From a virus (lineage: Duplodnaviria; Heunggongvirae; Uroviricota; Caudoviricetes): a DNA stretch of 64,000 bases. The stretch spans positions 108,741 to 172,740 of IMG/VR virus record IMGVR_UViG_3300009169_000014; one strand, written 5' to 3'. How positions within the stretch are numbered: the first letter of the stretch is position 1; each line of letters opens with the position of its first letter. Under the pieces are notes generated by a model. That model was not told where the DNA came from. It worked only from the letters and a program-made list of their open reading frames with translations, and did not search any database. Below, piece by piece: positions 28,394 to 28,761 of this stretch. Made by a program: the position numbers and the translations under genes.

Positions 28394-28761
28394 GGGGGTG
28401 ACCCGGTTTCGACAGGGGCTACTGAAGATCAGAGGCGAGCAAGGGTTGGTCAGCAGGCCCTTTCAAAAGCCGACCAAGACTCAAAAGCCAACAGCGATGT
28501 TGAGCTCCCGGCGTGGATGATCGGTGCCTCGGCACCGGAATTCCGCGCCGCCGCGTAATAGCGGCAGGGACGTCTTCCAGCAAGATGCTCCGGTAACTGG
28601 AAGGCGCAACACAGGAGACCGCCGTACACAGGAAGCCGCCAGCCTGTCTCGGGGTAAATAGAAGAGCGGCAAACCGTTGGACCAGTCAGGGGATACTGAC
28701 TACGCTCGTAGTATCTGGTCGTAGGTGTTTCTGGACGGGGGTTCGACTCCCCCCACCTCCA
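28394..28761 (+). ncRNA. ssrA: tmRNA (SsrA), one-piece, with tag reading frame ANSDVELPAWMIGASAPEFRAAA
   Basis: 5' GGGGGUGACCCGGUUUCGACAGGGG matches the conserved tmRNA 5' end GGGGCUGAUUCUGGAUUCGACGGG. 3' GGACGGGGGUUCGACUCCCCCCACCUCCA matches the tRNA-like T-arm plus acceptor. The 5' GGGGGUG pairs with the 3' CACCUCC. Resume codon GCC at 28487 follows an A-rich tract, ~93 nt from the 5' end. The frame runs to tandem stops TAA TAG at 28556-28561. Confidence 0.8.

Follow-up and report, generated by a model that had tools for sequence, protein, structure and literature searches.

A one-piece tmRNA with a 23-residue tag in a large tRNA-rich phage and its affinity to Myxococcota ssrA

We describe a transfer-messenger RNA (tmRNA) gene in a 64,000-nucleotide stretch of viral DNA (IMG/VR record IMGVR_UViG_3300009169_000014, positions 108,741 to 172,740). 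This stretch, here called the window, represents 64 kb of a phage genome of ~190 kb. The gene is complete and of the one-piece type, and its tag reading frame encodes 23 residues. Comparison with related copies places it in a phage family with two tag alleles and an affinity to the cellular tmRNAs of Myxococcota. From these sequence comparisons we consider it probable that the gene specifies a functional phage one-piece tmRNA, captured from or sharing ancestry with Myxococcota ssrA, and that it travels as an accessory cassette in tRNA-rich phages of ~170-200 kb. As such, the tmRNA of this genome is an already known kind of phage gene, with no new mechanism.

The tmRNA gene and its reading frame

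An earlier note, made from the letters of the window, had proposed a complete one-piece tmRNA, and two calls bear this out. ARAGORN places a tmRNA at exactly 28394-28761 on the plus strand, and the Rfam model RF00023 covers 28394-28764 over its full length (model positions 1-374 of 374; 115 bits versus a gathering score of 47, E=3e-44). The 5' end of the RNA reads GGGGGUGACCCGGUUUCGAC, the T-arm GGGGGUUCGACUCCCCC and the 3' end CACCUCCA. The parts of the molecule are as follows.

28394..28761, plus strand: complete one-piece tmRNA (ssrA), 368 nt, with the discriminator A as its 3' end (ARAGORN, Rfam RF00023)
28394..28400, plus strand: 5' strand of the acceptor stem, GGGGGUG, partner CACCUCC at 28754-28760 (pairs 4-6 covary)
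28439..28475, plus strand: pseudoknot 1 (PK1), stem 1 AAGGG/CCCUU and stem 2 GGUCAGC/GCCGACC (per-sequence pseudoknot search, covariation in both stems)
28487..28561, plus strand: tag frame, GCC at 28487-89, 23 codons for ANSDVELPAWMIGASAPEFRAAA, then UAA UAG at 28556-61 (Rfam alignment, comparison of copies)
28489..28502, plus strand: hairpin A, CAACA-GCGA-UGUUG, at the start of the tag, common to cellular myxobacterial tmRNAs (closing pair covaries A-U versus G-C, 3:3)
28506..28570, plus strand: expanded helix 5, with base UCCC (28506-09) / GGGA (28567-70) (folding and covariation)
28522..28537, plus strand: hairpin B, CGGUGC-CUCG-GCACCG, in the helix-5 arm (one compensatory pair)
28550..28565, plus strand: hairpin C, GCCGC-GUAAUA-GCGGC, with the stop codons in its loop (one compensatory pair)
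28737..28760, plus strand: T-arm GGGGG-UUCGACU-CCCCC (28737-28753) and acceptor 3' strand (28754-28760) (pairing)

Nine distinct tmRNAs were compared, namely that of the window and those of contigs L016, L019, L020, L021, L022, L009, L017 and L007. The relatives were found through neighboring proteins in IMG/VR genomes of 168-197 kb, and then, in contigs of viral or metagenome origin, with degenerate tag patterns; these were required, as an exact 23-mer of the tag had no match in IMG/VR. The eight related tmRNAs score 107-150 bits with RF00023, and identity among the nine copies spans 55-96% overall.

The 5' and 3' ends do form a tRNA-like domain, as the earlier note expected of them. The acceptor stem and the T-stem are both 100% paired and both covary, with compensatory changes in three of the five T-stem pairs. 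The acceptor stem has seven base pairs and is followed by the discriminator A, the T-arm loop is of the GUUCGANUCC type, and the alanine identity pair G3.U70 is found in 9/9 members of the family. Eight helices (acceptor stem, T-arm, PK1 stems 1 and 2, hairpin A, helix-5 base, and hairpins B and C) were assessed across the six long-tag copies: 95.4% of the cells are paired, against 37-47% when the partners are slid, and compensatory changes occur at 13 pairs, a count attained by 0 of 500 shuffles. Covariation is seen in the acceptor stem, the T-arm, helix 2 (H2) and PK1, and a helix in the region of pseudoknot 2 (PK2) covaries too (alignment columns 183-192 with 209-218). PK1 is an H-type pseudoknot with three compensatory pairs in stem 1 and two in stem 2. 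It was detected automatically in 6/9 copies; on the other three (L016, L020 and L007) the automatic finder failed or mis-paired and the stems were matched by eye, stem 2 of L007 being weak. The spacer from PK1 to the resume codon is 11-13 nt, comparable to that of E. coli.

The resume codon is fixed at GCC 28487 by the comparison across family members. The sequence AAAA|GCC AAC is invariant in all nine and is present in the cellular relatives as well; the A at position -4 from the resume codon corresponds to A86 of E. coli, the frame-setting A (PMC2481249). The Rfam alignment likewise sets the resume codon of the model at 28487. This frame encodes 23 residues, to which the charged alanine adds a 24th, and the stop UAA UAG sits in the hairpin C loop of the expanded helix 5. 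The resume codon and the 23-residue tag with tandem stops, both named in the earlier note, are upheld by the invariant AAAA|GCC and by Rfam; the covariance model gave no shorter canonical tag.

ARAGORN reads the tag differently. Its resume codon is GCC 28469, 18 nt upstream, from which a 29-residue tag, ADQDSKANSDVELPAWMIGASAPEFRAAA, would be made (ADQDSK+ANSDVEL...). This GCC is also preceded by CAAAA in the window, and the frame is open. Yet it belongs to GCCGACC 28469-75, the covarying 3' strand of PK1 stem 2, which pairs with GGUCAGC. Moreover, the upstream site is missing from L016 and from the short-tag class, a 1-nt indel in L019 takes it out of frame, and L020 has an in-frame stop seven codons 5' of the invariant GCC. 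In four relatives ARAGORN itself settles on the downstream codon, the Rfam alignment has the resume codon at 28487 and not at 28469, and the same upstream extension recurs in ARAGORN calls on cellular Myxococcota tmRNAs (for example, ADTDTK+ANDNVELALAA). We regard GCC 28469 as a miscall inside PK1 and the 29-residue tag as extremely unlikely.

Other ARAGORN calls on these RNAs deserve mention in their own right. The tag given for L007 (7468-7809), ATHEQTRRGFSAR, is wholly wrong and was rejected. The tmRNAs of L019 (863-1244) and L020 (680-1051) were missed, though Rfam scores them at 115 and 135 bits. On cellular Myxococcota tmRNAs, the upstream extensions comprise VNHEGNDTK+, ADTDTK+ and VSKNTQ+ANDNVELALAA. 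Because ARAGORN mis-set or missed tags in this tmRNA family, artefactual "odd" tags are to be expected in phage surveys that depend on ARAGORN only. To our knowledge, phage tmRNAs have been catalogued, yet hardly ever studied past the ARAGORN call.

The two tag alleles and helix 5

The phage family has two tag alleles, one of 23 residues (long) and one of 15 residues (short). The long class is made up of the window tag ANSDVELPAWMIGASAPEFRAAA, of ANDNVELPAWMIGASAPEFRAAA in L016 and L018, of ANSDVELPAWMIGAVAPGLRAAA in L019 and L020, and of tags ending in ...GAVAPEFRAAA in L021 and L022. The short class is that of L009, L017 and L007, with the tag ANDNVDFPQYALRAA. The two alleles differ by exactly 24 nt, inside the open reading frame (ORF). 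Since the short-tag relatives have the same helix-5 base with a far smaller insert, the longer tag is an in-frame (+24 nt) expansion of helix 5. The alignment argues that both phage alleles arise by in-frame expansion inside helix 5, and that the extra 12 residues of the 23-residue tag represent a structural expansion of this helix, also in frame, by two added hairpins. The tag region has a minimum free energy of -51.7 kcal/mol (z=-5.4) and adopts in the predicted fold a three-way arrangement of helix-5 base, hairpin B arm and hairpin C. All four base changes in hairpins B and C are synonymous.

The earlier note had singled out PAWMIGASAPEFR as an internal extension, which it proves to be when set against the cellular-type tag ANDNVEL|ALAA, into which it is an insertion. 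The description of the tag as atypically long does not hold, as cellular tags range from 8 to 35 residues (PMC8012679) and the tag of mycobacteriophage Bxz1, which we re-derived as ATDTDATVTDAEIEAFFAEEAAALV, has 25. The Bxz1 tag ends in ALV, not LAA. The window tag in turn ends in EFRAAA and departs from the canonical [YF]ALAA ending; that ending is typical rather than strictly defining, because many accepted tmRNAs deviate from it, Bxz1 among them.

Sequence variation within the family shows which parts of the tag are held. In the long class, six codons vary synonymously only and five non-synonymously, and the pairwise pN/pS is ~0.3; L019 and L020 have identical tag ORFs, while their whole RNAs are only 78% identical. 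The terminal Ala-Ala is retained in 9/9 phage copies. A phage-specific Arg stands at -3 or -4 from the C-terminus, and the antepenultimate residue is Ala or Arg, never Leu, in all phage copies. Inside the tag, PAWMIGA[SV]AP is a conserved motif without a counterpart in cells.

Cellular relatives and phage context

The cellular counterpart was sought in one genome per species (185,579 species) with the pattern TTCGAC-N55-85-GCN AAC GAC AAC GTN GA. This tag-prefix scan returned at least 120 loci, mostly Myxococcota among the matches listed; the alphaproteobacterial matches are two-piece tmRNAs. At least 62 loci, in Myxococcus, Corallococcus, Archangium, Hyalangium and Cystobacter, hold a one-piece tmRNA with the tag ANDNVELALAA. 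The phage tmRNAs are 45-63% identical to the cellular ones overall and 75-82% identical 5' of the resume codon, and they form a clade of their own. The identity of the 5' part is to Myxococcus, Corallococcus and Archangium (Myxococcaceae/Archangiaceae).

The Myxococcota tmRNA shares with that of the phage the 5' tRNA-like domain, the H2 and PK1 architecture, the spacer-plus-resume region CAAAAGCCAACGACAACGUUGAGCU, hairpin A, G3.U70, an unencoded CCA, and a first seven tag residues that are identical or nearly so. In contrast, the region of pseudoknots 2 to 4 (PK2-PK4) is unrelated in sequence, and helix 5 is expanded only in the phage. The Myxococcota tag has 11 residues and ends in ALAA, whereas that of the phage has 23 or 15 and ends in FRAAA or LRAA. 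The gene setting differs also, as the phage tmRNA lies among tRNAs and no tRNA was found in 69/69 cellular ssrA loci examined. These likenesses indicate a myxobacterium as the likely host, or at least donor. Set beside the tag of this inferred host group, the contrast expected by the earlier note is seen in part: the phage tag does differ from ANDNVELALAA and lacks the LAA end, but it keeps Ala-Ala, and LAAA ends exist in cells.

Such ends occur in two cellular-type tmRNAs from metagenome-assembled genomes of Myxococcaceae/Cystobacter, L032 820-1198 and L100 2380-2746, which have the variant tags ANDNVDGEGNLVLAAA and ANDNVELTLAAA, ending in ...LVLAAA and ...LTLAAA, respectively. Both are 78-85% identical to the other cellular tmRNAs. 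L032 has an in-frame insertion after ANDNVD, which indicates that tag expansion takes place in cellular myxobacterial tmRNAs as well.

Three features adjoin the tmRNA in the phage.

28285..28393, plus strand: intergenic leader of ~110 nt directly 5' of the tmRNA, after the stop of ORF 27871-28284, ending ACUUUCA|GGGG (conserved in both tag classes)
28935..29008, plus strand: tRNA-Met (CAU), 3' of the tmRNA in nearly all phage relatives with flanking sequence (ARAGORN, synteny)
29010..29522, plus strand: HNH endonuclease ORF adjoining tRNA-Met (Pfam HNH_3)

The leader has the hairpins CGUG-GCAA-CACG, GCG-GAAA-CGC and GGCCGCC-CUUCAACAA-GGCGGC. It matches no Rfam family, and is probably the processing, regulatory or expression context of the tmRNA. 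The HNH endonuclease may be a mobility factor of the cassette. IMG/VR viral relatives of 168-197 kb have the same order of tmRNA and tRNA-Met, and the tmRNA takes the same position in at least four large viral genomes. The relative L008 is without leader, tmRNA and tRNA-Met and has no remnant of them; the segment (~1.3 kb in L009) is replaced by ~150 nt (L008 7791-7940). The window and the L009 phage share a VWA protein that is 96% identical, yet their tag alleles differ and their tmRNAs are only 59% identical. The clean absence in L008, together with the divergence of the tmRNAs despite the near-identical VWA proteins, argues for an accessory segment that is exchanged between phages, and suggests a mobile or exchangeable tmRNA/tRNA-Met cassette.

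The genes called around the tmRNA, several by Pfam, include rIIB, an rIIA-like gene, T4 endonuclease V (denV, Pyr_excise), DNA ligase, VanY, SNF2 and DEAD helicases, and giant ORFans. The rIIA-like protein matches 2,926 GenBank phage records (best E=1e-44), and ARAGORN finds nine tRNAs in the window. PHROGs and Pfam gave nothing on most of the large ORFs or on the small neighbors of the tmRNA, and two putative structural proteins had no tblastn match among GenBank phages, so that no capsid or terminase match was obtained. Searched against GenBank phages, the tmRNA (blastn) and a 20-kb segment (megablast) returned nothing beyond 3' fragments of ssrA in contigs of Listeria phages. As capsid and terminase matches are lacking, the phage assignment is based on rIIA/rIIB, denV, the arrays of tRNAs and the relatives in IMG/VR. 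This lack is a weakness of the assignment, which the other evidence outweighs.

Further genes of the window were noted. Runs of very large ORFs (603-1266 aa) occupy 410-19093 and 58185-63398, both on the minus strand, with a 2048-aa gene immediately following in L145. None of them matches Pfam, PHROGs or GenBank phages, and they presumably encode parts of the virion or tail in a lineage without a cultured relative. The VWA-domain protein (49355-50416, plus strand) is found at 38-96% identity in 38 IMG/VR contigs (L151-L188), many of them from huge phages of 180-470 kb, and may be usable as a marker of a broad large-phage clade. An 894-aa ORF (30791-33475, plus strand), 2 kb 3' of the tmRNA, is a full-length homologue of the eukaryotic major vault protein (MVP). 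It has the Pfam domains MVP_shoulder (1e-22), Vault_3 and Vault, matches solved MVP chains with E=8e-25 over the shoulder and cap-helix region, and has homologues of 75-82% identity in three IMG/VR phages of ~170-190 kb. The first report of viral MVPs, a 2023 preprint (10.1101/2023.11.10.566534), concerned gut phages; the MVP-bearing phages seen here are environmental and probably myxobacterial.

A 73-nt tRNA with the anticodon UCA (51405-51477, plus strand) is labeled SeC by ARAGORN. Rfam, by contrast, recognizes an ordinary tRNA (54 bits), and an opal suppressor is the probable identity. TGA recoding was considered as its explanation and ruled out, TGA being the commonest stop (11/22 confident genes). 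The closely related L151/L009 phage is without this tRNA at the syntenic site; its tmRNA tag ends at a single UGA, that of the window at UAA UAG. A functional link of tRNA(UCA) to the tmRNA, by which read-through would feed trans-translation, is possible on these two cases. Bxz1 likewise pairs its tmRNA with a suppressor-like tRNA, tRNA(CUA).

Alternative explanations and the fate of tagged proteins

Mycobacteriophages have been recognized as tmRNA carriers for two decades, and Bacillus phage G is another such carrier (Hudson et al. 2014, PMC4131195); further examples come from huge phages (Al-Shayeb et al. 2020, PMC7162821), and ~2.3% of sequenced phage genomes have the gene (Buchholz et al. 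2022, PMC9004378). Bxz1 and cluster C (tmRNA Website; PMC4131195) resemble the phage studied here in having a complete one-piece tmRNA within a tRNA cluster, a large virulent-type genome (156 kb in Bxz1) and a long tag. The Bxz1 tmRNA nevertheless has no detectable sequence similarity to this one, and the host phylum differs. While the Bxz1 tag has lost the terminal Ala-Ala, the present family keeps it together with a host-like N-terminal half. Huge (jumbo) phages carry tRNAs and tmRNA, as this phage does, as translation-support genes, whose proposed role is to keep hijacked translation running; some of them encode SmpB, a gene that we did not find in the ~380 kb of phage DNA searched. The L158 phage, which shares the VWA gene, has a tmRNA tag of canonical type, GNTLKLAA.

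A functional tmRNA would be expected to work as follows. It would be transcribed with the surrounding plus-strand genes and excised from the conserved leader, after which host enzymes would add the CCA and the host alanyl-tRNA synthetase (AlaRS) would charge it with Ala through G3.U70. It would act with SmpB, presumably that of the host, since none is encoded in the window. During infection it would enter ribosomes stalled on broken mRNAs and resume at GCC 28487, appending A+ANSDVELPAWMIGASAPEFRAAA, and terminate at UAA UAG in the helix-5 loop.

Several observations weigh against this account. The gene does not encode the 3' CCA (the bases after the discriminator A are UUC), but the cellular relatives are likewise without it. 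PK3 and PK4 align poorly or have deletions relative to the Rfam model. In L007, PK1 is weakened and the D-loop region atypical; some copies of the tmRNA may thus be inactive. A scan for sigma-70 promoters and terminators near the tmRNA found nothing usable on the plus strand. SmpB was probed for with the E. coli sequence and nine myxobacterial sequences from ssrA loci, and none was found in the phage DNA searched, which is partly redundant and covers 64 kb of the ~190-kb genome. The host assignment comes from tmRNA similarity alone, with a cellular set pre-selected by the tag prefix. Within the tag, amino-acid changes fall in RNA loops and conserved codons in stems, so that the tag ORF may be constrained by RNA structure no less than by the peptide; the constraint is a joint one on RNA and peptide, not ascribable to the peptide alone.

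The missing phage SmpB would also suit a decoy or inhibitor, an RNA that competes for SmpB or AlaRS and shuts down host trans-translation. The model for it is the fragment of mycobacteriophage DS6A, which consists of the tRNA-like domain only, and phage molecules of this kind do exist and inhibit tmRNA (PMC4131195). In the window, however, the molecule has an intact mRNA-like domain, which is conserved better than any other part; its open tag frame, in-frame indels, invariant resume context and correct stop are features that a decoy would not need, and we hold this explanation to be very unlikely. Still harder to credit is an integration remnant or a contaminant, that is, a host ssrA at a prophage junction or a bacterial contig. 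Phages often integrate into ssrA and carry its 3' fragments, as the Listeria phage matches exemplify, and one viral genome (L149) has a tmRNA with the canonical tag ANDNVELALAA that is probably of the prophage-junction type. Such fragments comprise the 3' part only, are near-identical to the host gene and lie beside an integrase. The gene of the window is full length, is only 45-63% identical to cellular tmRNAs and has a different tag; it is syntenic in several viral genomes of 168-197 kb, with phage tRNAs and the HNH gene alongside, and neither an integrase (among the Pfam calls) nor cellular housekeeping genes are found in the 64 kb. These data agree with the earlier note, which had taken the gene to be phage-borne and not an integration remnant. 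A functional phage tmRNA is the explanation that we retain.

A separate matter is what would become of the tagged proteins. The earlier note had proposed that the tag lacks the degron and could serve rescue without ClpXP targeting or alter the fate of tagged proteins. The replacement of the antepenultimate Leu by Ala or Arg in every phage copy, the phage-specific Arg, the conserved PAWMIGA[SV]AP without cellular counterpart, and the example of Bxz1, whose tag shows how far phage tags can stray from the host consensus, all speak in its favor. However, Ala-Ala-COO- at the C-terminus is the dominant ClpXP determinant, mutation of the antepenultimate Leu causes only a modest rise in KM, and a tail of alanines is in itself a degron for ClpXP (PMC7652416). 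All nine phage copies keep Ala-Ala-COO-, cellular myxobacterial tags ending in LAAA exist, and an irrelevance of degradation would be hard to square with the persistence of the invariant RAA(A) end. The loss of the degron is unlikely, and escape from ClpXP is not indicated by a tag that keeps Ala-Ala-COO-. Given the known tag lengths, Bxz1 and the ClpXP determinants, a long tag ending in AAA is neither unprecedented nor evidence of such escape. Since the ANxxVEL N-terminus and Ala-Ala-COO- are both kept, the tagged products are most likely still substrates of a ClpXP-type protease, possibly with altered affinity or adaptor dependence.

A more speculative view, which we think decidedly unlikely, is that the tag is a degron which the phage has deliberately re-tuned and which is under diversifying exchange. 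Both alleles keep the ANxxV[ED] module and the terminal Ala-Ala, and both have gained a spacer particular to the phages (4 or 12 residues) as well as an Arg beside the ClpX-contact residues. The engineered ssrA tag DAS+4, AANDENY-SENY-ADAS, similarly has an intact N-terminal module, a spacer and a weakened ClpX signal, which makes degradation adaptor-dependent (PMC3064785). The comparison is an analogy only, as the phage keeps Ala-Ala where DAS+4 has Ala-Ser. We know of no SspB-like adaptor for Myxococcota or for the phage. Were the view correct, degradation of the rescued products would be adaptor-dependent or delayed, resembling DAS+4; alternatively, PAWMIGA[SV]AP would be read by a phage or host factor and the phage would control the fate of truncated proteins. 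A link to tRNA(UCA) would then be conceivable, with read-through feeding trans-translation and the allele that accompanies the suppressor ending in UAA UAG and not in UGA.

With or without such re-tuning, the series of 11-residue cellular tags and 15- and 23-residue phage tags shows how a tag grows, by expansion of helix 5 in frame while RNA structure and reading frame are preserved jointly. It also shows that the N-terminal module, the Arg and the Ala-Ala end are the parts of the phage tag that do not change. These natural variants are candidates for tunable degrons. The tmRNA family also points to uncultivated phages of ~190 kb that probably infect Myxococcota.

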